Source: a virus | Lineage: Duplodnaviria > Heunggongvirae > Uroviricota > Caudoviricetes | IMG/VR virus record: IMGVR_UViG_649989947_000025 | Reading direction: 5' to 3' (one strand) | DNA length: 34,029 nt | Part shown: piece after piece, positions 3,162 through 32,890 of the stretch | Position numbering within the stretch: position 1 is the first letter of the stretch | How the letters are laid out: each line of letters opens with the position of its first letter | Made by a program: the position numbers and the translations under genes | Notes under the pieces: model-generated | Seen by the model: the letters and a program-made list of their open reading frames with translations, nothing else | What the model was told of the DNA's origin: nothing | Databases searched by the model: none

Positions 3162-4262
3162 TCATTCCATTTCGAAATCATCAATCCTCACTTCAAGCTC
3201 CAGACTGGTTGTAAAACCGTTATCGGGGCTGACGGTATGCGTCAGAGTCGTAATGGTCCATTCCGCATCATCTATCGGCTGTTTAAAGCCACTGACTTTC
3301 ACTGGCATTTCCGTGTAGAGATCTGCCCGACCTTCTGCCAGTTGTAGCGAGAATGACGCAACGCCGCGTTGCAGGCGTTCCCACTGCATTTTCGCCGCCC
3401 GTTCGGCGTTGCTCCGGTTGGCATAGGTGCGATTAAGTACCAGCACGTTTTCATCTGTACCCACCAGGTAATCGCCCTGCTTCGCTTCCGGCTCTTTCTT
3501 CTGCTTCTTAGTCCTGCGCTTACGCTTCACCGTGGTGCTTTCATTCTTCGCGGGTTCGCGGGTATGCAACCAGCTGGCAATTACTCCCGTGTAGGCTCCG
3601 CGATCTGCCAGGGTAAAGCGGTGACTGTCGCCGTCCTTACGTGTGATAGTGATAACCGGTAGTGGTTTACCGCTGGCGCTTTTACCCTGTCCCTGCCGGA
3701 TGAATAACAGATTGCCATTTTTCACCGACGCAATAGCACCGTATTGGCGCGCCAGCCGCATCAGAAAACTGCCGTCACTCTCATTGGTCTGGTCTATATG
3801 TTCCACGGGTTTATCTGACAGGTCTTTACCCAATGCCATCTTCAGTTTGTGCCGCACAGCTATTTCCTTCACCACTTCCCCGACGGTGGTCTTGTGCCAC
3901 GACTTTTCACGGCGGGTATTCAGCGTTTCACGAAAATCAGCACTTCGCGCCCGGATAGTCAGGCGGTCCGGTGCGCCAGTGTGTTCAATCTCGTCCACCG
4001 TGAATGCCCCTTTCGGGAAAAGCGGCTGCCCCTTCCAGCCCAGCGCCAGCGTAATAACCGCACCACGGCGCGGCAGCACGATTTTTCCGTCGGCGTCGTC
4101 CAGCTCCAGATCAAGCTGGTCCGCTTCAAAGCCCCGATTGTCCGTCAGCGTCAAACTCATTAGGCGGTTATCCAGCACAGTGGTGATATCCCTGCCCTCA
4201 ATACTGATGCTGAATGCGGGAGTTTTGTTGCCTTTGTTAAGCAGTTCAGAGCTGAAATTCAT
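3162..4262 (-). CDS. D: tail protein gpD (late control D)
   Basis: 366 aa, position downstream of U, 4-nt overlap with the U stop. Confidence 0.85.
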   Translation of the reverse strand: MNFSSELLNKGNKTPAFSISIEGRDITTVLDNRLMSLTLTDNRGFEADQLDLELDDADGKIVLPRRGAVITLALGWKGQPLFPKGAFTVDEIEHTGAPDRLTIRARSADFRETLNTRREKSWHKTTVGEVVKEIAVRHKLKMALGKDLSDKPVEHIDQTNESDGSFLMRLARQYGAIASVKNGNLLFIRQGQGKSASGKPLPVITITRKDGDSHRFTLADRGAYTGVIASWLHTREPAKNESTTVKRKRRTKKQKKEPEAKQGDYLVGTDENVLVLNRTYANRSNAERAAKMQWERLQRGVASFSLQLAEGRADLYTEMPVKVSGFKQPIDDAEWTITTLTHTVSPDNGFTTSLELEVRIDDFEME

Positions 4263-4744
4263 GACAGCAGCCCTCCCACCGTTTTACTGATATCGCTTAA
4301 GGCAGACGTTGCTGTGTCCTGCAGATTATTCAGTTGCGCACTGAGATCACCGAATATATCGGACAGGGATTCATCCACCCGTTTGAGCGACAGGGTGAAC
4401 TCAATCCGGCGCGGCATACCGTCGCGGAAAAACTCCGTTTTAGTCTGATTCAGTCCCTCAATCACATACATGCCATAAATCGTGCCACTGCCTTCAATCA
4501 GGGGCCATGCTTTCCCCTGTTCTGCCATCTGCTCCAGTGCCAGCAACGACAGCCTGCCGCCTGTTATCTCCGGCATAAGAACACCGGAAAGCGTCAGCAT
4601 GTCGTTGTCCGGTCCCAGAAACTGCGTGGACGGACGTCGGTTTACCCGGCTGTTTGCCGCATGTCGCCAGCTGCGTTGATACTGCAGCTCCTGATACGGC
4701 ACGGTGCGCAGCATAAACACGTACAATCCCAGCACCATCATCAT
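4259..4744 (-). CDS. U: tail protein gpU
   Basis: 161 aa, P2 gpU size and position. Confidence 0.8.
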   Translation of the reverse strand: MMMVLGLYVFMLRTVPYQELQYQRSWRHAANSRVNRRPSTQFLGPDNDMLTLSGVLMPEITGGRLSLLALEQMAEQGKAWPLIEGSGTIYGMYVIEGLNQTKTEFFRDGMPRRIEFTLSLKRVDESLSDIFGDLSAQLNNLQDTATSALSDISKTVGGLLS

Positions 4745-5898
4745 GCGTCGTATCCCCCCTGATCGCTGTAGTTACTCCTGGCTTTTGCCTTCAGCCTGCG
4801 TTCACGTTCATCAAGCTGGCGGGCCACCTCCCGCGCAATATCCTGCGCACTTTGTCCTGGCTGTGTCTGGATGATGATCTGCGTCGGTGCTTCAATCCGG
4901 TAAATGGGCGGCACAGTAGCTGCACGACTCACCATCGCTTCACCGCCTTTTGCGGGAAGCGCCAAAGGATGCAACGGTGGAAGCTCTGCTGGCGCGGCAG
5001 CAACACCCATCATTCCGGCGACAACGGCAGCCAGTGCAGCTGTATTTCTCCGGCTGGTCACGTTTGCCGGGCCGTTAACAATTTCCGGCCCGTTTTCACC
5101 GACGATGCCAAACTGCCCGCGCGGGATATAGCCGCCGCTGTCATACATCCCCGCAAAGCCATATCCCCATGACGGAAAATCACCCGATGGCATCATCACT
5201 TTACCGTCTGCATTCACCGTCGCAGGTTGCTGACGCGTCACGCTTTCCGGCAGTTTCGCCTTTGCAGCCTCTTTACTGACAATGCCGAGTTTATCCAGCA
5301 ACCAGGAAACGCCGGATTTCAGGGAGTCCAGCGGATGCATAACCATATTCAGCCCTTCCGCCAGTGCCTCCCCGAATCGTCGCCCCATTGCCGCTGCGCT
5401 CTGCAGTTCGGCAGAGGTCGACTTAACGGGCGTCAGCAGATCAGTAAACCAGCCCCATAGCGCCTGCACTTTGTCGCCAATCCACTGGAACACAGGCTTA
5501 AGCGGTTCGAACGCTGCACTGACGGGACCTACCGCCGCTTTGAATCCTTCCACCACGCCACCGAGAAATGCGGTGATGGGTTGCCAGTATTTCCAGACAA
5601 CCAGCGCCACGCCCGCCAGTGCAGTAACCACAAGACCTATCGGACTGAGCAGAGCACCTAACAGACCAGATATGGCATACAGGGCAACGCGCAGCATCGC
5701 CAGTGGACCAGATGCCAGTACTCGCAGCACCGTGCCTGCGGCGGCCAGTCCACCGCGCAGTACCGCCAGAGGATTCATAAACATCACAGCAACAGCACGT
5801 AAACCGGATAATCCAGACCGCAAAAGTGCAACCGGCGCACCTGCTACAGTTTTCAGGACATTTCCCGTCAGTGATGCCGTGCGGCGCAAAGACGACAA
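4741..5898 (-). CDS. T: tail tape measure protein gpT, C-terminal portion (frame continues upstream of 5898 without a stop)
   Basis: Gly/Ala/Leu-rich repetitive sequence typical of tape measure; frame differs from the N-terminal ORF. Confidence 0.7.
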   Translation of the reverse strand: MSSLRRTASLTGNVLKTVAGAPVALLRSGLSGLRAVAVMFMNPLAVLRGGLAAAGTVLRVLASGPLAMLRVALYAISGLLGALLSPIGLVVTALAGVALVVWKYWQPITAFLGGVVEGFKAAVGPVSAAFEPLKPVFQWIGDKVQALWGWFTDLLTPVKSTSAELQSAAAMGRRFGEALAEGLNMVMHPLDSLKSGVSWLLDKLGIVSKEAAKAKLPESVTRQQPATVNADGKVMMPSGDFPSWGYGFAGMYDSGGYIPRGQFGIVGENGPEIVNGPANVTSRRNTAALAAVVAGMMGVAAAPAELPPLHPLALPAKGGEAMVSRAATVPPIYRIEAPTQIIIQTQPGQSAQDIAREVARQLDERERRLKAKARSNYSDQGGYDA

Positions 5899-7814
5899 CG
5901 GCGCAGTAAGTAAACCTGCGGCGTTGCCCGATGAAGCAAGCCCGCGTCGCAGCAGTGCCAGTGGCGCGCCAGCCAGGACAACGCGCTGCTGGTTCGAGTT
6001 ACTGCTGCCGTAACGGAAGATAACGTTTTGATACCCAACACAGAGAATCCCAGACGGATCACTGCCAGCGGCCCCAGCACTGCAGCCAGCGCCACCGCTA
6101 AGGTGCCGAGGCCGACGGTAACCGCAGCCACAACAGCCGATGCTTTCATCAGTGTGCCTGTCAGTTCCGGGTTAGCTTCCACCCAGCGACGCAACGCCCC
6201 CGTGACGCTTTTCACCGTGTACAGAATATCCATCAGCGGCTGGCGCAGCGTTTCGCCCAGGCTGCTGAAGGTGTTCTGCGCTCCGGTTTTGACCAGCAAC
6301 CACTGCGCAGAAAGTGAATCCTTGTTAATGTCGGATTCTTTCTGCATGGAGCCGAGCGCATCATTGCCCGCTGTCAGTTTTAGCTGGCGCTGCAGTTCCG
6401 GAAGGTTGTTTGCCAGTTTCGCCGCGTCATCACCAAACTCTTTACCAAACAACATGGTCATGGCAGACAGACGCTTGTCCTGCGGCAGTGCGTTCACCTT
6501 CTCCAGCACACGCTGGATAGTTCCCATCGCATCCTTCGTCATCTGCTTTTCAATCACTTCAGGATTGAGTTTCAGCAGATTCATCCCTTCAAAGAAACTC
6601 TTGCTTTGCATGGTGGCAATGGACAATTCACGCACCATCGCGTTTGCTGCACTGGCTGCAACCTCTGGCGCAGCGCCCAGTGTCAGGAAGGTGGAACCCA
6701 GCGCCGCCGCTTTACGATAATCCAGACGGTCAGCCACACCGCCCAGACGTTGCATCACATCAATGATGTCTGCCCCTTTCGACATGGCGTTATCATCCAG
6801 ATAGTTCAGCGCATCACCGAGCTGTTCAATATTGCGGGTGGGGATTTTGTAGAGCTGGGCGATTTTCCCCAGACTTTCTGACAGTTCATCCGCTGGCAGC
6901 TCAAAGGCTGTTGCCGCCTTTGCTGCCGTACTGGCGAAGGCCAGCAGGTCACGTTTCTGATCTTCCCAGCTGTCGTCAGGGTTTGCGACGTTCATGCGCG
7001 CACCACCTTCAACCAGTGCAGCGAAGTCCACCGCACCGTTTTCCATCGGCAACTGTTCGCTGGCAGCCTTGATGGCATCCTGCATTTCATAAAAACGTGC
7101 AGTGCGGTTGCCATTATCGTCACGCAGACCATTGACCTGCTTTGCCACACCTTTCATGGCATCTTCCATGCTGGTATAGCTTTTTACTGCCGACATCACT
7201 GGCGCACCCATTGCCAGCCCTGCAGCCGTGGTGGTGGCTCCGGCACCTGCAATACGATCACGCACCTCCAGCGAACGGGCATAACTGGCACGCGCTGCAT
7301 TCATCCTGCGCTGAGCTTCCCCCAGTCGCTTCAGCCGCGCCTCCTGTTTCGAAAGTTCCTGGTTATAACGTGATGTTTCACGGGCTAAACGGGCAGTTGC
7401 TCCCGCATCGTCTTTCGCAGAAATTCCCGCCCGGTACAGTTCAGCACGCACAAGCGCCGTCTGCTGCTGCAGCTTTTTCTGGCGTTCTTCCAGGCGCTGA
7501 ACAGCCAGCCGTTGACGGCCCAGAGCAACAACCTGACGTTGCGAAGGCGGCCCCATCGCTCCCAGTTCCTGACTGAGCAAATTTGCACGCTGGCGGGCAT
7601 AGTTCAGCCTGTCGCCTAATTTCTGATTTTCTGCCTGCAGCTTTCGGAAGCTGTCCAGACTGCTCCCGGCCTGATCAAGCTGCTTTATTGCATCGCGGGA
7701 TTTTTTGACAGCAGCAGCCAGTTCTCTTGAACTGGCCTGCGCAGATCGAAATGGGCGGGTGAGCTTGTCAACCGCATTAAGAATGACCTGCAGACGCAGG
7801 TTGTTATCACTCAT
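5868..7814 (-). CDS. T: tail tape measure protein gpT, N-terminal portion (coiled-coil rich), ends in an out-of-frame tail
   Basis: 648-aa ORF starting MSDNNLRLQV directly after E/E'; last ~35 aa are Trp/His/Cys-rich, suggesting frame loss. Confidence 0.75.
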   Translation of the reverse strand: MSDNNLRLQVILNAVDKLTRPFRSAQASSRELAAAVKKSRDAIKQLDQAGSSLDSFRKLQAENQKLGDRLNYARQRANLLSQELGAMGPPSQRQVVALGRQRLAVQRLEERQKKLQQQTALVRAELYRAGISAKDDAGATARLARETSRYNQELSKQEARLKRLGEAQRRMNAARASYARSLEVRDRIAGAGATTTAAGLAMGAPVMSAVKSYTSMEDAMKGVAKQVNGLRDDNGNRTARFYEMQDAIKAASEQLPMENGAVDFAALVEGGARMNVANPDDSWEDQKRDLLAFASTAAKAATAFELPADELSESLGKIAQLYKIPTRNIEQLGDALNYLDDNAMSKGADIIDVMQRLGGVADRLDYRKAAALGSTFLTLGAAPEVAASAANAMVRELSIATMQSKSFFEGMNLLKLNPEVIEKQMTKDAMGTIQRVLEKVNALPQDKRLSAMTMLFGKEFGDDAAKLANNLPELQRQLKLTAGNDALGSMQKESDINKDSLSAQWLLVKTGAQNTFSSLGETLRQPLMDILYTVKSVTGALRRWVEANPELTGTLMKASAVVAAVTVGLGTLAVALAAVLGPLAVIRLGFSVLGIKTLSSVTAAVTRTSSALSWLARHWHCCDAGLLHRATPQVYLLRRCRLCAARHH

Positions 7815-8297: not shown

Positions 8298-8813
8298 TCA
8301 GAGGCCGAGGGCGTTGCGGTGCGCTTCCATCAGGTCCACACCGTCCACAATTTCCACCATGTTGATAAGGTCCACTTCATAGAGCACCTCACCATTGATG
8401 GTCAGCTTCGCGTAGCTGTTGGTACTGGTCACTTTGGTGGTGTTGCTTTCGCCCGTCTTCCACTCACCGGAATCCACTTCTTTGTGACGTCCACGCACCA
8501 CAAGCTCCACGGCCTGCACTTCCCCGGTATCGTCACGCTGGATAGAGCCGGTAAAGCGCAACTGGATGCCATCCACCGTGGCTTTGCCCATCTGCTTAAA
8601 CAGCAGCAGTTCAGTACCACCAATGGTAAATTCTGTGTCCAGCGCACTGTCATCAAGCCCCAGATCCACATCCACTGCCCCCGGCATTCCGCCACCGCGA
8701 TACTTCTCATATTTGCGGGTGAATTTCGGCAGCGTCAGCGACTCAACGATCCCCTGCCAGTTGTTCCCGTCGTTAAACAGGTTCAGGTGTTTTAATTTGC
8801 GTGGTAAAGCCAT
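8298..8813 (-). CDS. FII: tail tube protein gpFII
   Basis: 171 aa, size and position. Confidence 0.85.
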   Translation of the reverse strand: MALPRKLKHLNLFNDGNNWQGIVESLTLPKFTRKYEKYRGGGMPGAVDVDLGLDDSALDTEFTIGGTELLLFKQMGKATVDGIQLRFTGSIQRDDTGEVQAVELVVRGRHKEVDSGEWKTGESNTTKVTSTNSYAKLTINGEVLYEVDLINMVEIVDGVDLMEAHRNALGL

Positions 8814-8822
8814 GTTGTCCCC

Positions 8823-9995
8823 TTACGCGCTGACCTGGCTGGCGAAATTCACCAGGTACTGATCGGTGATGCGCTGACGCAACATCAGGTTTTCAAGTGG
8901 CGGCACTGGCGTGTAGTCGTAGTCGATGGTGAGTTTTCCGGCTTTCAGAGTGTCTTTGTCGTTCACCGACTCGTCCAGCCAGCAATCACCACCAATGAGA
9001 TACCCCTGACTGACCAGGCTGCGCATTTTGGCGCGGATGCCCTCGATAATGTCGCGCGCCAGCGACGGGTTCAGCGGTTTGTCCACTGCCCACATGTGCG
9101 CTTCTGCCATTGTGTCCGTCAGCACCTGCGCCGTGCGGGTGTAGTTTTCGAAGGCAAAGAGCGGGTCATCACTCAGGCAGCGGGAACCCCAGAAGCGGAA
9201 ACCGTCTTTACGCACAAGCGTGGTGACGTCGTTCTGGTTCAGCAGACCTGCATCGGTTGCCGGGTCCTGCAGATCCCAGAACACATCTGCAGAAATTCCG
9301 GTGACACCGTTCACGCCCACGTTGGACAGGCTTTTGTGCCACCCGGTCTGCTCATCAATTTTGGCACGCAGACCAAGCGCACGGGCGGTGGCATATGCCG
9401 TTGCTTCGGCATTCAGCACCGTGTCCCAGCCAGTAAAGTCGGGCCAGATCAGCATTCCTTCGCGCTGGCTGAAGTTTTCACGGTAAGTGATCGCCTCCTG
9501 TACCGTCTTGCAGCCATACGCTGACAGGTAGGCAAACCCACGCAGGCTTTGCGCCACACTCAGCAACTCAGTCGCAACGGCTTTGTTATCGTGACCTGGC
9601 ACGCCGAGAATGCGCGGTTTAACGCCGAGCTGTGTCTGGGCAGATAACAGGGCTTTCATGCCTGTTTTTTTACCTTCAGCAGTCACTGCGCCGATGATAT
9701 TGGTCGTGGTTTCTTCTTCCGTTTCACCCTGCGGCACACGCACAACAACGGTCACGGGTTTTGCCTGGTCAGAGATGGCATCCAGCGAACGGGCCAGCGT
9801 GCCGGACTCACCCGCTTTACCGCTGGCAGTCAGCACATCAGTGATCAGCACGGGTTTATTAAGAGGAAACATTTTTGCATCGGCATCATCGCCCGTGCAG
9901 ACCATGCCCACGATGGCGGTGCTCACCGTGGTAATGGATCGGGTACCTTCGTTGACTTCAACAACGCGCACCCCGTGGTGGTAATCCTGAGCCAT
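8823..9995 (-). CDS. FI: contractile tail sheath protein gpFI
   Basis: 390 aa, size and position. Confidence 0.85.
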
Positions 9996-10071
9996 AGTGG
10001 CGAACCTCCTGATTGGATTAGGCTTCGCCCTATGTTGAAGTGATTGTGCCTGACAAACAGCTAAGCGCAGT

Positions 10072-10089
10072 TGTACCGTTATTCACACA
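10072..10089 (-). promoter_or_regulatory. candidate late-promoter activator site (TGT-N12-ACA) upstream of FI
   Basis: TGTACCGTTATTCACACA about 80 nt upstream of the FI start; same half-site spacing as the site upstream of P. Confidence 0.4.
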
Positions 10090-10137
10090 AAATGACGGTA
10101 TTTGTCTGCTTGCAGGGATAATCAAAATAATGCTGAT

Positions 10138-10704
10138 TCAGGGGGATTCATTGCTCTTATTTGCCGGAAATTTTCTATAAATGGTAGAAACGCCTACATC
10201 AAAAATCAGTGCAATACACTGTCTTGATTCTCCGGCCTCGAGTAAACGCCCAATCTGTGCCCACTGTTCGGTGGTCAACTTAGGACGGCGTCCACCTACT
10301 CTGCCTTTGGCACGAGCTGCAGCCAGCCCTGCCATGGTACGTTCAACTATCAGTTCGCGTTCCATTTCAGCCAGGGCCCCCATGACATGAAAAAAGAAAC
10401 GGCCCATTGGGGTGCTGGTATCAATACTGTCAGTCAGGCTTCGGAAATTCACGCCACGCTGACGCAACTCTTCTATCAGCGTAACAAGATGCCGCATACT
10501 GCGCCCCAACCTGTCCAGCTTCCAGACAACCAGAGTGTCTCCTGCCGATAGTGTCCTGAGCAGTTTTTTAAGCCCCGGTCTGTCGGACTTAGTGCCACTG
10601 ATTTTATCCTCAAAAATCCGCTCACATCCCGCGCAGTTCAGTGCATTACGTTGCAAATCGGTGTTCTGGTCATTTGTTGACACGCGTACATAGCCAATAA
10701 GCAT
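10138..10704 (-). CDS. serine DNA invertase, Hin/Gin/Pin/Cin family
   Basis: MLIGYVRVSTNDQNTDLQ...LVVWKLDRLGRSM...GRFFFHVMGALAEMERELI, near-identical to Gin/Pin over the catalytic domain; longest ORF extends to 10749. Confidence 0.9.
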   Translation of the reverse strand: MLIGYVRVSTNDQNTDLQRNALNCAGCERIFEDKISGTKSDRPGLKKLLRTLSAGDTLVVWKLDRLGRSMRHLVTLIEELRQRGVNFRSLTDSIDTSTPMGRFFFHVMGALAEMERELIVERTMAGLAAARAKGRVGGRRPKLTTEQWAQIGRLLEAGESRQCIALIFDVGVSTIYRKFPANKSNESP

Positions 10705-10748
10705 GATCAATCCCCTGAATAAAAACCGTGGATGATGCCAGTTAGCCA

Positions 10749-11147
10749 TTATCTCTGCATTTTCATAAACGTACGTTTAGCATAACGTATCTGTGGCCCC
10801 TTACGGCTGACGCGATCACGCAAGCCGTAATGGTGAACACGGGCAATGCGCTGTACCTTACCTTCAAACTGCACGCTGGCAGAGTCGGCGCTGGCGGCAG
10901 TTTTCAGGTATTTTGTGGTGCGAAGTTTTGTAAACATCTGCCGTTTGATACGGCCTTTTTTACTGCGTGCTGTTACTCGCCTCGGTTCATAGCTGCTGCC
11001 ATCAGGATTGCGTTGCATCCTGATGTTCTGCTGCTGTGTCCGGCGCAGTTCCTGCGCCAGCTGGCGCATCATGCGGCTTCTTGCGGCTGGCTCCAGATTC
11101 GCCAGCAAGGCACTCAGCCAGTCGTCCACCTTCTGCAGTTCAGCCAC
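10749..11147 (-). CDS. S: tail completion / virion morphogenesis protein gpS
   Basis: 132 aa, follows R as in P2. Confidence 0.7.
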   Translation of the reverse strand: MAELQKVDDWLSALLANLEPAARSRMMRQLAQELRRTQQQNIRMQRNPDGSSYEPRRVTARSKKGRIKRQMFTKLRTTKYLKTAASADSASVQFEGKVQRIARVHHYGLRDRVSRKGPQIRYAKRTFMKMQR

Positions 11148-11592
11148 GTTTCACCGTCCACATTTCTTCAGGTTCATCAGGTTCCGCTACCGCTTCAACA
11201 CTCGACACACTGCCGTCAGTGCTGACCAGCACACGCTCCGTCAGTTGCAGGTTAAGGCTGATATCACAGACATCGTTGCGCAAAATATCCACCTCAAAGG
11301 TGAATAACTTTTCCCGTAACGCCGGGTTATTGATGGCATCGGGCTGGTTATCACGCAGCCACAGCAAAACCGGGGCCATCAGCAGATTCTGGTCGCCGCT
11401 GAAATCCTCAATCACCACGTTCAGGGTGTAGCGGTACTCCCATGACATGGAGCTGGCCCCCGTGGCAACCAGCGAACCGTTATCCACAAACAGATGCAGT
11501 TTGTCCGGGTTATTACGGACATAAGGCACTGCTTTATTAAGGGCGTGGCGCAGGGATTGTGGTTTGTTCACTGTTTCGCTCCTGACACGCAA
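11140..11592 (-). CDS. R: tail completion protein gpR
   Basis: 150 aa, size and position. Confidence 0.75.
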   Translation of the reverse strand: MRVRSETVNKPQSLRHALNKAVPYVRNNPDKLHLFVDNGSLVATGASSMSWEYRYTLNVVIEDFSGDQNLLMAPVLLWLRDNQPDAINNPALREKLFTFEVDILRNDVCDISLNLQLTERVLVSTDGSVSSVEAVAEPDEPEEMWTVKRG

Positions 11593-19466: not shown

Positions 19467-20441
19467 TTAAATCAAGTCTAATGTACTCTGTTTCCCTGGC
19501 CATTTTAGCTCTAACAAATACTCCCGGGACTCATTTATGATCATAATCACATCATCATAATCCCGTTTTGTTTTTAGCGCTCTAGCCATGTTGCTCTTAA
19601 CTAAATCAACTGTTCCCTCACAATTAAGATTAAGCGGATTATTAGGTAGGTGAGGTACAACCGCAAACACTGGTCTTTTCGCCTTATTTGCAAACTCAGC
19701 TTGAGTTATCGTTCCGCTATTTAACGCAGCCTCGATTAAAATTGAACCTGCAGATAATCCAACTTGTATCCGATTTCTTTGTACAAATGATTGTTTCTGG
19801 GCCGGCCGACCCATAGGATACTCAGAAATCCATGCACCACCTTTATCCAGAATCTCTTGAGCAAGTCGACTGTTTTGCTTCGGCTTAGCCTCCTCAAGAC
19901 CATGCGCCAAGACAGCAATGGTTTTTCCTTTTGCCTGTAACGTTGCCTTGTGGGCATTCGCATCAGTGCCTATTGCTAACCCACTTACAACAATATACCC
20001 AGCAGACACTATCTGATTAGTGATCCGCCTCGTTATTTCTTCCCCTGCAGGGGAGGTATCACGGGATCCTACAATTGCGACACCCGGCAATTCTTTGAGT
20101 ATACTTTTATCCCCTTTTATGTAGAGAATTGATGGTGGATTAGGAGTAAAAGCTAAACTAAGAGGATAGAATTCAGACCCATATGGTATTAGCTCCACAC
20201 CATTAACATGGTGGTTCTCCAATTCAGCGTTCGCTATTAGAAAATCAGTCTCAGATATTTTATCTTTTAGAAACCCGTGGCTATTAACCATCTCAGTTAA
20301 GTCGCGTATATCACGAATAACATCAAAATCGATAAGCTCAAAGAATTTTAATACACTTTGATCAGATGCTAGCTTCCCGATTTGAATAGCTAATCCAAGT
20401 GTATTTTTTAATTCTTCTGAGTGCACTTTGCTACTCCTCAT
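19467..20441 (-). CDS. DprA/Smf-like (SLOG Rossmann-fold) protein, ShosA-like partner of the upstream PRTase
   Basis: AIVGSRDTS ... VVSGLAIGTDANAHKATL ... TIAVLAHGLE motifs; 11-nt overlap with the upstream gene; AT-rich. Confidence 0.7.
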   Translation of the reverse strand: MRSSKVHSEELKNTLGLAIQIGKLASDQSVLKFFELIDFDVIRDIRDLTEMVNSHGFLKDKISETDFLIANAELENHHVNGVELIPYGSEFYPLSLAFTPNPPSILYIKGDKSILKELPGVAIVGSRDTSPAGEEITRRITNQIVSAGYIVVSGLAIGTDANAHKATLQAKGKTIAVLAHGLEEAKPKQNSRLAQEILDKGGAWISEYPMGRPAQKQSFVQRNRIQVGLSAGSILIEAALNSGTITQAEFANKAKRPVFAVVPHLPNNPLNLNCEGTVDLVKSNMARALKTKRDYDDVIMIINESREYLLELKWPGKQSTLDLI

Positions 20442-21006
20442 AGTTTGCAGTTTCTAGCAGAGCTAATGGCATTATAACTCCAGCTCCTGCAGACTCCAGT
20501 AAATAAAAACACGCAGACAAACTACCGCCTGTTGTTTTAACATCATCTAGTAGTAACACATTTCGCCCCATGAGGTTACCACCCCTAACTCTGATACTAG
20601 ACATGTGACCAGTAATTGAGCGATCTCCTCCTTCACGATGTGCGCTAGGAACAGTGCGTGTTCTTTCCAAACAGCAATCAACAATGCCCCGACGGTGAAC
20701 ATTTACGATTCGCTCGGCGACCTCAATCAAAGCCGGTGAAATTCTGCCTTCAGTGTGAGACGGGACAACTGCTATCGAAAAAGGAGACTCAACAAAACGC
20801 CCACCGCCACCTCTGATTACTAACCGCCCAACCTTATCTATAGCTAATCGAGAAAAACGGTTAATGGCCCTTTGATGATTACGATTATTTTCATCCTTAA
20901 AATCCATCATCTGCCTTGATAGTTCATCGCTATGAGGGTTGCGCTCTCCCAAATGCCAGTAGGGGTGATACAAGCCACACGATGTAATACTTACGGGTAA
21001 AAGCAT
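20431..21006 (-). CDS. phosphoribosyltransferase-domain protein, ShosT-like candidate toxin/effector
   Basis: PRTase PRPP-binding signature VLLLDDVKTTGGSL; first gene of a two-gene operon; AT-rich. Confidence 0.7.
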   Translation of the reverse strand: MLLPVSITSCGLYHPYWHLGERNPHSDELSRQMMDFKDENNRNHQRAINRFSRLAIDKVGRLVIRGGGGRFVESPFSIAVVPSHTEGRISPALIEVAERIVNVHRRGIVDCCLERTRTVPSAHREGGDRSITGHMSSIRVRGGNLMGRNVLLLDDVKTTGGSLSACFYLLESAGAGVIMPLALLETANYEE

Positions 21007-21130
21007 TCTTTATTCTCATGTAGTCCTAACTCAAACAATGTTAAGCGAAATGATATTTCATAGACAAACACAAATTTAAGAATAATCTCAATGATCACAT
21101 TTTTGATTATGAAACAAAGCCAAGAGTTAG

Positions 21131-21165
21131 CGCGCGCTCGTATCCCCGCCACGCCTGCCCGCTTT
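21131..21165 (-). other. candidate cos site (cohesive-end region)
   Basis: minus strand reads GGCGTGGCGGGGATACGAGCGCGCGCT, resembling the P2/186 cohesive-end start recalled from memory; correct position and orientation relative to Q. Confidence 0.45.
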
Positions 21166-21534
21166 ATGCAGTGGTTTTCATGCACATGCATGACATGAGC
21201 AAAAGCCCGCCAGTTCTGGCGGATCTGAGCAAAGACGATCCTCAATCGATCATGCGATTTCATGCAGCATAGTCATGCACTGTCAAGGAAGTGAAAATCC
21301 GTATCTGAATGGCCACTTGAAAAACGGATCATACGGGTTTACAAAGATGAATGTTCGCTGTGAACGGGAAGCGGAAGTTAGCTTTCAGATAACATAATCC
21401 ATATGCACGAGAACCTCTAAAATAGAATGGGACACCTAAGCGGGGTACTTACAACGATTCTTTCCATATTCACAGTTAACACTCTGTTTGGCGTATTTTT
21501 ATTCAAATAGCAAACACCAATAAAAGGAGTTTCC

Positions 21535-22883: not shown

Positions 22884-27019
<4,136 letters not shown>

Positions 27020-29797: not shown

Positions 29798-30373
29798 GTG
29801 ACCATGAATTTGGAGAAAGGCGGACGAGGCGCTATAGAGCGCATGGTAGAAGCATATGGCTTCAAGACTCGACAGGCGTTGTGCGATCACTTAGGAATCT
29901 CTAAAAGTACTCTCGCCACACGCTATATGCGTGACTCATTCCCTGCTGAATGGGTAATCCAGTGCGCACTTGAAACGGGCGCCTCGCTTAACTGGCTCAC
30001 GACCGGACATGGTTCAAAGCAAACTTCAGGTAATACAAATACTATGGAAGTCGTTAAATATGTATTATCTGATGGAACCTTGCAGGAAGATGGTTTTTAT
30101 ATTTTCGATAAAGAATTTCTACCATCTACGCTCAAAAATCCGTTTGTAATCACCGATAACAATTCCGTTTTTATTTGCGATAAAGAGTTTAACGATATTC
30201 GTGACGGCAAATGGGTAATAAGTATTGATGCCGAAGTAACAATCCGCGATATCACTCGTTTACCTGGTGGAAGAATCTTAGTTGAAGGTGGAAATAGGGC
30301 TTTCGAATGTAAAAAAGAAGAAATCGAAATTATTGGAAAAATTATAAGCATAACAGTTAAGTACTTTGAGTAA
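29798..30373 (+). CDS. cI: CI-type immunity repressor (186 CI-like)
   Basis: 191 aa, N-terminal CI-type HTH (KTRQALCDHLGISKSTLATRYMRD) plus C-terminal oligomerisation domain; position next to the switch. Confidence 0.8.
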   Translation: MTMNLEKGGRGAIERMVEAYGFKTRQALCDHLGISKSTLATRYMRDSFPAEWVIQCALETGASLNWLTTGHGSKQTSGNTNTMEVVKYVLSDGTLQEDGFYIFDKEFLPSTLKNPFVITDNNSVFICDKEFNDIRDGKWVISIDAEVTIRDITRLPGGRILVEGGNRAFECKKEEIEIIGKIISITVKYFE

Positions 30374-30423: not shown

Positions 30424-31347
30424 ATGTCAACTCAAAAATTAAAATTTAGCCATATCAAAAACGATCTGAAAGCAATAGTTATGCAGAATCGTGGAGGGCA
30501 AAAAGTTATTGAGCGTATACTCCTAGCCTATGGCTTCAAGTCACGACAGGCATTATGTAATCATCTAGGTATTTCCCAAAGTACTATGGCCAACAGATAT
30601 GCACGTAATACCTTTCCTGCAGATTGGGTTGTTATATGTTCCATAGAAACAGGAGCATCAATTGAATGGTTAGTTCTTGGTTCAGATACTGCTCCTTCAT
30701 CAGAGCAATATTCTGAAAAACATGCCGTTAATGGCCTTTGCAATGAAGTATACATTCCCACTATAAAGTTCGATAATGAAAAACTCATGAATTTTAACCG
30801 AGGGGGTAAGGCAACAATAGAACGAATTGTCGAGGCTTACGGTTACAAAACGCGCCAAGCATTAGCTGATCACCTAGGTATTTCAAAAAGCACATTAGCC
30901 ACACGATACATGCGTGACATTTTTCCTGCAGACTGGGTTTTGCAGTGTGCAATAGAAACGGGCCATTCTATTGAATGGATTTCATTTGGTACAGGAGAAA
31001 TGAAAAACGCAAAAAATAAAGATACTTTAACATTAGTGAAAAAAGTATTAATCAATGGCAAGTTAATAAATGATGGCTCATATTTATTTGACCCATGCTT
31101 TCTACCTTCCAATTTAAAAAATGCATTCGTAGTATCTACCGAAGACTCTGAATTAATATGTGAAATGGGTTTTAAAGATGTACATGATGGTAAGTGGCTA
31201 GTAAATATTGATGGAGAGAATTCATTTAGAATGATAACTCGACTACCTAAAGGACGAGTTTATATTTCATCCCAAAATCACTCTTTTGAATGTTCGCTTA
31301 CAGACATTGAGTTTATTGCAAAAGTTATTATAAGTTGTTTACATTAA
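30424..31347 (+). CDS. CI-repressor paralog with two tandem CI-type HTH domains
   Basis: residues ~24-88 and ~127-190 each repeat the CI HTH; C-terminal ~110 aa align with the C-terminal domain of the upstream CI. Confidence 0.75.
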   Translation: MSTQKLKFSHIKNDLKAIVMQNRGGQKVIERILLAYGFKSRQALCNHLGISQSTMANRYARNTFPADWVVICSIETGASIEWLVLGSDTAPSSEQYSEKHAVNGLCNEVYIPTIKFDNEKLMNFNRGGKATIERIVEAYGYKTRQALADHLGISKSTLATRYMRDIFPADWVLQCAIETGHSIEWISFGTGEMKNAKNKDTLTLVKKVLINGKLINDGSYLFDPCFLPSNLKNAFVVSTEDSELICEMGFKDVHDGKWLVNIDGENSFRMITRLPKGRVYISSQNHSFECSLTDIEFIAKVIISCLH

Positions 31348-31372: not shown

Positions 31373-32890
31373 GTGAAATGTGGTGATTGTAATTGGAACT
31401 GGGATGAAGAAACTACCTTTATATTAGACGACGAAGAGGAAATTCTTTCCAAAGACAAACTTAATCGGAGACACTATGCAGAATATCTATATTTTTATCT
31501 TAAGGAAAAGGGGCAAAAGAACAACACGGTAATCAACCTTAATGCAGAATGGGGAGCTGGTAAAAGTTTTTTCATAAAGAGATTTTATAACTCAATAAAA
31601 GATGCACACCCATGCGTTTACATTGATGCCTGGAAGCAAGACTTTTCTGATGATGCATTTTTAACCCTTTTTTCTTCTTTGTCACAACAATTGCAAACAT
31701 ATGCAGGAAAACTTGATGCTCGATTGATACAAAGCGGCCATGCTATCGGACGCTTTACAAAAGGTGTTCTACCTGAAATCATATCTGGCCTAATCAAGAC
31801 TTATGCAGGAGTAGATAACGTAGGTGATATAGCCAAAGAAGCCTCATTAATAATGCTGAAGGAACACCAGGAAAAACTGAAGAGCATTAAGGTATTAAAA
31901 AAAGAACTAACGTTATGGTCTAGGTTGGCATATGAAAATAGTTTTTCATGTCCTATATTTATCTTTATAGATGAATTAGACAGATGCAGGCCAGATTATG
32001 CAATTTCTCTTTTAGAGATTGTTAAACATATATTCGATATTAAAAATTTTGTCTTTATTATTGCTACTGACACAGATCAATTACAACATTCAATCAAGAA
32101 TGTTTACGGTAATGATTTTTCCGCAAATGACTATTTAGGCCGTTTTTTTCATAGAAGATTTACTTTAAAACAACCTGAACTTAAAGATTTAATTAATGGT
32201 GTTGTTGGTGATTATATTGGTACCGATTTTGAAAATATCACATCAAAAACACACCCACTAACAGCAACATTAGAAGACTTTTCAATAAATATTTCCAACG
32301 TATTTGAAGCATTTGGGTTAAATCTAAGAGACTCAATCCGAAATACTGAAAGGTTAATAGACATTCTTAAATCTGATTTAGTCAAAAAGAAAGTAGATTA
32401 TATTTTTATAATTTCGCTAATGATTATATATGATAAGGAACGTCAAATTATAGATGGACTAATTGGTCGAAGAAATGCAGCACAACGTTTCACTGATTCG
32501 ATAAAGCAAAGCTCCAATTTAAAAGGTGTTTCTCAAGCCATCCTTGAATTAAATCTTGATACAAATCAGCAAAGAATAGGTGTCAATTATATCTATAGAA
32601 CGGCGAGCAGTAGATTATTCATCTCACAGATCGAGCCCAAAATAAATTTAACATTAATAAATTACTTAGATGTTGCATTGTATTTTATTAATAATATAAA
32701 CATGCTTAAATCAAGTATAAAAAACAATGGGCAAAATTCACTAATGATTATATCTCAACAAGGCCCTATTGATGGTGATACAGCTATAAAGTATTTGCAA
32801 GGAGCCCTTATAGAGAATGGTCTGAATACATCTTTTTATGCCTTACATAATTACATTGAATTAATTGAACTGGCCACATCATTTGATTAA
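31373..32890 (+). CDS. KAP-family P-loop NTPase
   Basis: Walker A NAEWGAGKSFF, KAP-type Walker B FIFIDELDRC, 505 aa, GTG start with GGAG SD; very AT-rich. Confidence 0.75.
   Translation: MKCGDCNWNWDEETTFILDDEEEILSKDKLNRRHYAEYLYFYLKEKGQKNNTVINLNAEWGAGKSFFIKRFYNSIKDAHPCVYIDAWKQDFSDDAFLTLFSSLSQQLQTYAGKLDARLIQSGHAIGRFTKGVLPEIISGLIKTYAGVDNVGDIAKEASLIMLKEHQEKLKSIKVLKKELTLWSRLAYENSFSCPIFIFIDELDRCRPDYAISLLEIVKHIFDIKNFVFIIATDTDQLQHSIKNVYGNDFSANDYLGRFFHRRFTLKQPELKDLINGVVGDYIGTDFENITSKTHPLTATLEDFSINISNVFEAFGLNLRDSIRNTERLIDILKSDLVKKKVDYIFIISLMIIYDKERQIIDGLIGRRNAAQRFTDSIKQSSNLKGVSQAILELNLDTNQQRIGVNYIYRTASSRLFISQIEPKINLTLINYLDVALYFINNINMLKSSIKNNGQNSLMIISQQGPIDGDTAIKYLQGALIENGLNTSFYALHNYIELIELATSFD

Follow-up and report, generated by a model that had tools for sequence, protein, structure and literature searches.

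The prophage in the window, the 34,029-nucleotide stretch of DNA analysed here, lacks the baseplate and tail-fibre genes of its P2-like relatives, and comparison with intact relatives indicates that this block was very probably removed by conservative site-specific recombination, in which a serine invertase of the Gin family would have joined a genuine crossover site to a quasi-site in the tail completion gene S. The prophage itself is P2-like (Peduoviridae, Elveevirus-like) with late genes mostly on the minus strand, as judged from its open reading frames (ORFs) and from comparison with annotated phages. It lies adjacent to ybjL, with grxA-ybjM-ybjL of E. coli forming the left flank of the window, which on sequence grounds holds the ybjL-adjacent prophage of an EPEC lineage close to E. 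coli O127:H6 E2348/69.

The head, lysis and tail-completion genes Q, P, O, N, M, L, X, Y, K, lysABC, R and S stand in P2 order and are collinear with those of Cartapus at 93-98% identity, and a Pfam family is on record in identical loci for each late gene from Q to S. The tail operon (FI, FII, E, E', T, U, D) and ogr are complete in the window, but T carries a 4-bp frameshift (Table 1). The dyad in the spacer between FI and the invertase gene presumably corresponds to P_F, the Ogr-dependent late promoter motif of P2, and would thus be a candidate promoter upstream of FI that was retained. A promoter and terminator scan of 9900-11000 returned nothing above chance; given that no terminator-like site was seen between the S fusion described below and the invertase gene, read-through from the late operon into the latter is possible.

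Table 1. Features of the prophage, in positions of the window.
Feature	Position	Strand	Details and evidence
ogr		-
D	3162-4262	-
U		-
T, tape measure, split	4741-7814	-	4-bp deletion at 5967/5968, (GCCA)3 to (GCCA)2, relative to E2348/69 T of 3078 nt
E/E'		-
FII	8298-8813	-
FI, tail sheath, 390 aa, intact	8823-9995	-	98% identity to CFSAN064036 FI over full length; Pfam sheath domains in identical loci
TGT-N12-ACA dyad in FI-invertase spacer	10072-10089	.	pattern search
Gin/Pin-type DNA invertase, 188 aa, starts MLIGYVRVS	10138-10704	-	Pfam, Gin structure match, RefSeq annotation in E2348/69
Invertase leader, from crossover site to ATG; also supplies last 7 codons and stop of S fusion	10705-10759	-
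Truncated S (tail completion) fusion ORF, 132 aa	10749-11147	-	Pfam Phage_tail_S, profile positions 2-130 of 148
Hybrid 26-bp crossover site TTTTCATAAACG-TA-CGTTTAGCATAA, the deletion junction	10760-10785	.	left half from invertase-proximal site, right half from S quasi-site
R, tail completion, intact	11140-11592	-	98% identity to CFSAN064036 R over full length; PF06891 in identical loci
Lysis genes, X, L, M, N, O	beyond R
P and Q	beyond O	+
IS21-family insertion in 3' part of replication gene A	22884-24837	-	Pfam rve and IstB_IS21; absent in E2348/69
Remaining genes: cargo, early region with A, two CI-type repressor genes, KAP NTPase, integrase

Between FI and S the window holds a single gene, that of the 188-aa Gin-type invertase. 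Neither V, W, J, I, H, G, G' and Hv' nor the orf in the V-S spacer of CFSAN064036 had a tblastn match in the 34-kb window at E <= 1e-3, with the sole exception of an annotated ORF whose start lies upstream of the crossover site and of which the first 16 codons matched. In Cartapus, a spacer orf, V, W, J, I, H, G, G' and an alternative fibre end lie between S and the invertase gene, and CFSAN064036 and ECO2947 have a gene block of the same type; 4LV2017 has V-W-J-I-H-G between S and FI, without an invertase. A deletion of V-W-J-I-H-G, as an earlier note on this DNA had claimed from the sequence, is therefore confirmed by these four relatives, all of which carry the block, and an ancestor that never had the V-G block was rejected. 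Intact relatives hold 6.3-6.7 kb at the locus, made up of the orf, V, W, J, I, H, G and the invertible fibre segment, and the DNA lost from the window amounts to 6,289 bp when measured against CFSAN064036 and to 6,728 bp against ECO2947. The ancestral invertible segment proposed in the same note is likewise seen in Cartapus, CFSAN064036 and ECO2947, where H/G and the alternative G'/Hv' are flanked by inverted 26-bp sites with core TT, so that alternative fibre C-termini and assembly genes lie between inverted sites. Two such inverted 12-2-12 sites accompany the invertase gene in these three relatives but not in the window, which retains one hybrid site; the invertase is thus an orphan, as had been proposed.

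Intact relatives and E2348/69 also have, on the opposite strand, a 384-aa ORF that separates V from S (4292-5446 in IMG/VR locus L003; 14359-15513 in L004), which had only a weak, sub-threshold Pfam match and was lost in the window lineage. Cartapus carries another gene here, so this position may, from the sequences compared, be a cargo hotspot. A different arrangement of the fibre switch was seen in six IMG/VR loci (L023, L061, L062, L063, L084 and L088), in which the invertase-proximal half-site and its 9-bp outer flank occur twice, inverted and 1.7-1.9 kb apart, with the same outer sequence at both ends.

Mapping of the deletion endpoints against intact P2-like relatives, a check put forward in the earlier note, resolved the junction to the base. 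Alignments of the invertase side to Cartapus, CFSAN064036 and ECO2947, and of the S side to CFSAN064036 and ECO2947, put the break between 10772 and 10773, where the match to the invertase side gives way to the match to S, with 0 bases gained or lost. The parental invertase-proximal site in intact relatives is TTTTCATAAACG-TT-GGTTTGGGAGAA, which together with an inverted partner in H (reverse complement, TTCTCACATACC-TT-GGTTTGGGAGAA) flanks the fibre segment, and the parental quasi-site at the 3' end of S is TTCCAAGTAACC-TA-CGTTTAGCATAA. Both deletion endpoints thus coincide with the central dinucleotides of invertase-type 12-2-12 sites, and the cores differ by one base (TT in the genuine site, TA in the quasi-site), with TA present in all three recombinant junctions, namely that of the window and the two of E2348/69.

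Likeness to crossover sites was scored by scanning 26-mers with a half-site weight matrix built solely from the six published crossover sites of EC958 prophages (PMC4134206, Table 3). By this matrix, the genuine sites in two intact relatives scored 26.8 and 23.5 bits, and the S quasi-site, at 13.3 bits, ranked third of ~18,300 positions in these relatives, behind both genuine sites. The top background score in ~70 kb of examined loci was 11.5 bits, and none equalled the S quasi-site; in the window, the junction site scored best (19.3 bits, against 11.5 for the next). The scan found no site in 9996-10137 or 10705-10748, where a search for crossover sites had been suggested, and located it at 10760-10785 instead. 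Given that both ends fall exactly on the cores of such sites, a random deletion is very unlikely.

The deletion left S truncated. Codons 1-125 of S (10773-11147) are followed by seven foreign codons (TFMKMQR) and a stop from the invertase leader, yielding a fusion shorter than the intact S alleles of 148 aa, and we advise its annotation as a pseudogene. The earlier note was right that only an invertase separates S from FI, but S, which it took to end at 10749, is not intact. The ORF reaching to 10749 is an in-frame upstream extension of the invertase coding sequence, which starts at 10704, as RefSeq annotates it in E2348/69. At 10745-10752, in the sequence TAATG, the stop codon of the S fusion shares bases with an ATG that lies upstream of the invertase start and in the same frame; initiation there would give a 203-aa enzyme with an N-terminal extension. 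This codon is ATG in intact E. coli relatives and ACG in Cartapus.

The invertase has matches to Pfam Resolvase (PF00239, E 5.9e-53, residues 3-135) and HTH_7 (PF02796, E 4.4e-15), is 74% identical to Mu Gin, and matched the Gin structure 3UJ3 over residues 1-184 with E 3e-93. Its motif GYVRVSTNDQ aligns Ser9 to that of Gin, so that the catalytic Ser9 motif is present, and by its sequence it is a full-length member of the Gin/Hin/Cin/Pin (Din) small serine recombinases. Relative to the widespread allele WP_000905023.1 it carries R163C in the HTH domain (window position 10218), a position held by Val in Mu Gin. The distance from the core of the crossover site to the ATG is 68 nt in the window, compared to 67 nt between gixR and gin in phage Mu. 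The full-length enzyme and this Mu-like spacing were counted in favour of the invertase explanation. A Fis motif scan of the 5' part of the gene found loose Fis-like 15-mers only and 0 strict-motif matches; this region aligns with Mu gin, and coding constraint accounts for the alignment.

At least 24 contigs from independent assemblies, including GCA_900448265.1, GCA_000249235.2, GCA_000249195.2 and several SRA runs, carry an identical S fusion and junction. An assembly artefact, in which baseplate and fibre genes present at the locus were collapsed or dropped, for instance because the invertible segment confused the assembler, is conceivable in that invertible fibre segments can yield spurious contigs (PMC4134206). 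However, these contigs come from separate NCBI- and SRA-derived assemblies, one of them, from GCA_900448265.1, spans 5.1 Mb and matches the window at 100% identity across 20.4 kb, and the S-fusion protein has been deposited under several GenBank accessions. The sharing of the junction across independent assemblies effectively rules out misassembly, which we consider extremely improbable, and shows the junction to be a fixed lineage marker; a corrected assembly with contiguous baseplate and fibre genes, which the earlier note had named as the case that would overturn its reading, is countered by the same assemblies.

The junction was found in 0 of 5,426 complete E. coli genomes, and an exact search of a species-representative genome collection found neither the junction nor the S allele. 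Seventeen of the 5,426 genomes carry the intact S allele with the quasi-site, unrearranged, and four, all of the E2348/69 type, carry an inversion junction. In IMG/VR, ~100 copies of the invertase-proximal half-site had the canonical right half, and the only aberrant one belonged to an E2348/69-type locus, which leaves a widespread hotspot of aberrant junctions unsupported. The hypothetical intermediate junction between the inner half-site and the S quasi-site had no match in IMG/VR.

The prophage at the same insertion site in E2348/69 (NC_011601, 852446-889278) is 99.94% identical to the window over shared DNA. The two differ by 20 SNPs in 34 kb, the 4-bp loss in T, the 1,954-bp IS21-family insertion and a segment of ~4.76 kb absent from the window; T is intact in E2348/69 and A is free of the insertion. 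Both prophages have used the same quasi-site, have S truncated at the same codon (in E2348/69, a RefSeq pseudogene without the C-terminus) and have the same invertase save R163C. Unlike the window, which lost the whole segment, E2348/69 kept it in inverted orientation, comprising the 3' end of S, the spacer orf, V, W, J, I and a truncated H, and lost the invertible segment. Its junctions, at ~873.7 kb and ~878.5 kb of NC_011601, read TTTTCATAAACG-TA-GGTTACTTGGAA and TTCTCACATACC-TA-CGTTTAGCATAA: the former joins the invertase-proximal half to the reverse complement of the quasi-site left half, and the latter joins the H-side half of the other genuine site to the quasi-site right half. Both halves of the quasi-site are thus kept at reciprocal junctions, which argues for conservative site-specific recombination, given that slippage cannot yield them. 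Two events, an inversion and the loss of the invertible segment, are needed to reach the state of E2348/69. In principle, the palindromic TA core shared by its two hybrid sites would allow the 4.76-kb segment to flip back, restoring S, or to be deleted. Paired-end sequencing of E2348/69 detected neither flipping nor deletion at the ybjL-adjacent locus (Goldberg et al., PMC4272514, Table S1), so that the hybrid sites are at best weak substrates; three other invertible prophage loci were found in that strain, in a Mu-like and two P2-like prophages (PMC4272514).

These observations can be assembled into a mechanism, for which we infer an invertase as the cause. The catalyst would be the prophage's own invertase or a similar enzyme from a co-resident prophage, of which E2348/69-type genomes carry several. 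Serine recombinases break both strands at the central dinucleotide and swap half-sites. One partner would have been the genuine 26-bp site by the invertase gene and the other the chance quasi-site in S, or a hybrid derived from it; cutting at both central dinucleotides and rejoining of the outer halves would give the hybrid site, the fusion of S to the leader and the orphan invertase. Recombination by Gin/Hin-type enzymes normally depends on inverted sites, supercoiling and Fis, and these enzymes have a strong preference for inversion over deletion. This preference and the TT/TA core mismatch suggest that a deletion event would be inefficient, which, like the rarity of aberrant junctions (one of ~100 IMG/VR half-sites), the lack of flipping in the paired-end data and a Fis enhancer that the motif scan could not confirm, was counted against the invertase explanation. 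Homologous recombination was rejected, there being no repeat longer than the imperfect 26-bp sites. An illegitimate deletion without RecA or an invertase, by replication slippage or microhomology end-joining and with endpoints on the sites by coincidence, would find some footing in the T that the parental sequences share at the junction and the AAC motif a few bases to the left, as well as in the frequency of deletions in decaying prophages and the slippage-type 4-bp loss in T of this same prophage. However, microhomology at the junction is a single base, the endpoints lie on the cores of the second-best and third-best crossover-type sites among ~18,300 positions, and slippage could not have produced the reciprocal inversion products that E2348/69 carries at the same quasi-site. 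We therefore regard an illegitimate deletion as very unlikely.

If an invertase was responsible, the state of the window can be reached by three routes: in one step from an intact prophage, from a first inversion intermediate, or from the E2348/69 state through a deletion that joins its two hybrid sites. We lean towards a deletion via an inverted intermediate shared with E2348/69. A shared first step is favoured by the closeness of the two lineages and the rarity of such events otherwise, and the route through the intermediate by the matching palindromic TA core that both E2348/69-type hybrid sites have. A single invertase-mediated deletion that started from a fully intact prophage and had no link to the rearrangement in E2348/69 appears possible but is not what we would expect. 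For the window junction, a single exchange of the genuine site with the quasi-site suffices, and three events in total over both lineages would be required, equal to the stepwise route. On the other hand, rare core-mismatched events would then have hit the same quasi-site independently in sisters that differ by so few SNPs, the 17 complete genomes with the same S allele have stayed unrearranged, and a deletion between two TA-core hybrid sites would need no mismatch.

Beyond the deletion, the prophage bears other lesions. The frameshift splits T into ORFs of 648 aa and 385 aa, a split shared by the other assemblies that lack the baseplate and fibre block. The IS21-family element in A is 1954 bp long, encodes IstA (340 aa) and IstB (260 aa), and has TGTCA ends and a 5-bp target duplication (GCAGC). 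The element is thus defective several times over, with no baseplate, spike, fibres or fibre chaperones, a truncated S, a frameshifted T and a disrupted A, and the expectation that it cannot make infective tails holds as far as its own genes are concerned.

Cargo and immunity genes were also recognized. Between Q and the early region, on the minus strand (19467-21006), two cargo genes matched the Shosta defence pair in PADLOC (ShosA, DprA-like, E 2.8e-70; ShosT, E 3.7e-14), and a 90-aa ORF just upstream of them (20991-21263) had no match. In the interval between the repressors and the integrase, on the plus strand (31373-32890), lies a gene for a KAP-family P-loop NTPase that matched the candidate defence family PDC-S20 (E 5e-78). 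Two CI-type repressor genes are adjacent (29798-30373 and 30424-31347); the second encodes 307 aa with two CI HTH stretches and a C-terminal domain, and looks from its sequence like a duplicated or fused immunity region.

The closest precedents come from phage P1, for which Iida and Hiestand-Nauer reportedly described, in 1986 and 1987, quasi-site recombination by Cin and conversion of mismatched cores. As in the window, the P1 Cin/Din cases joined a genuine 26-bp site to a partial look-alike by a conservative break at the central dinucleotide, with a one-base core mismatch resolved to one parental form. Those cases were laboratory-selected, on plasmids or P1, whereas the rearrangements of the window and E2348/69 are fixed in natural chromosomes; in the window, moreover, the look-alike lies in the structural gene S, baseplate and fibre genes were lost, and dependence on an invertase is what we infer. 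The window also shares with the Mu G segment and gin, EC958 Phi1/2/4 and Cartapus a Gin-type recombinase and a 12-2-12 site 67-68 nt upstream of the invertase gene but, unlike these switches, it has no invertible segment, a single hybrid site and no switching in cis. PinE of e14 and PinQ of Qin are likewise small serine invertases kept in defective prophages short of most tail genes, although e14, unlike the window, retained its P segment. Orphan Pin-type invertases can act in trans on the sites of other prophages, as PinQ does on e14 (PMC12529663).

We found no publication describing the deletion; an earlier mention is possible, as the E2348/69 genome paper fell outside the literature covered. 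Our results represent a natural, base-resolved example of a known process, Din quasi-site recombination, in a known element, and not a new type of system. By analogy with the Pin enzymes, the orphan invertase might have been kept for action in trans on co-resident segments, and self-grounding at look-alike sites might recur in P2-like prophages, a broader reading that we consider doubtful. If true, grounded P2-like prophages would keep their lysis and capsid genes and their defence cargo (here the ShosTA-like pair and the KAP NTPase). The orphan invertase is a candidate trans-acting factor for other invertible loci. The proposed mechanism would replace a generic call of defective prophage with one resolved to the base, and the junction provides a clean lineage marker. 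The mechanism would also explain the odd inverted V-W-J-I-H' arrangement and the S pseudogene of the reference EPEC strain E2348/69, linking them to a sister lineage with the deletion. These results suggest that a phage can have its baseplate and fibre genes deleted or inverted via a chance look-alike site, whether by the enzyme of its own host-range switch or by a paralogue that the cell also carries.
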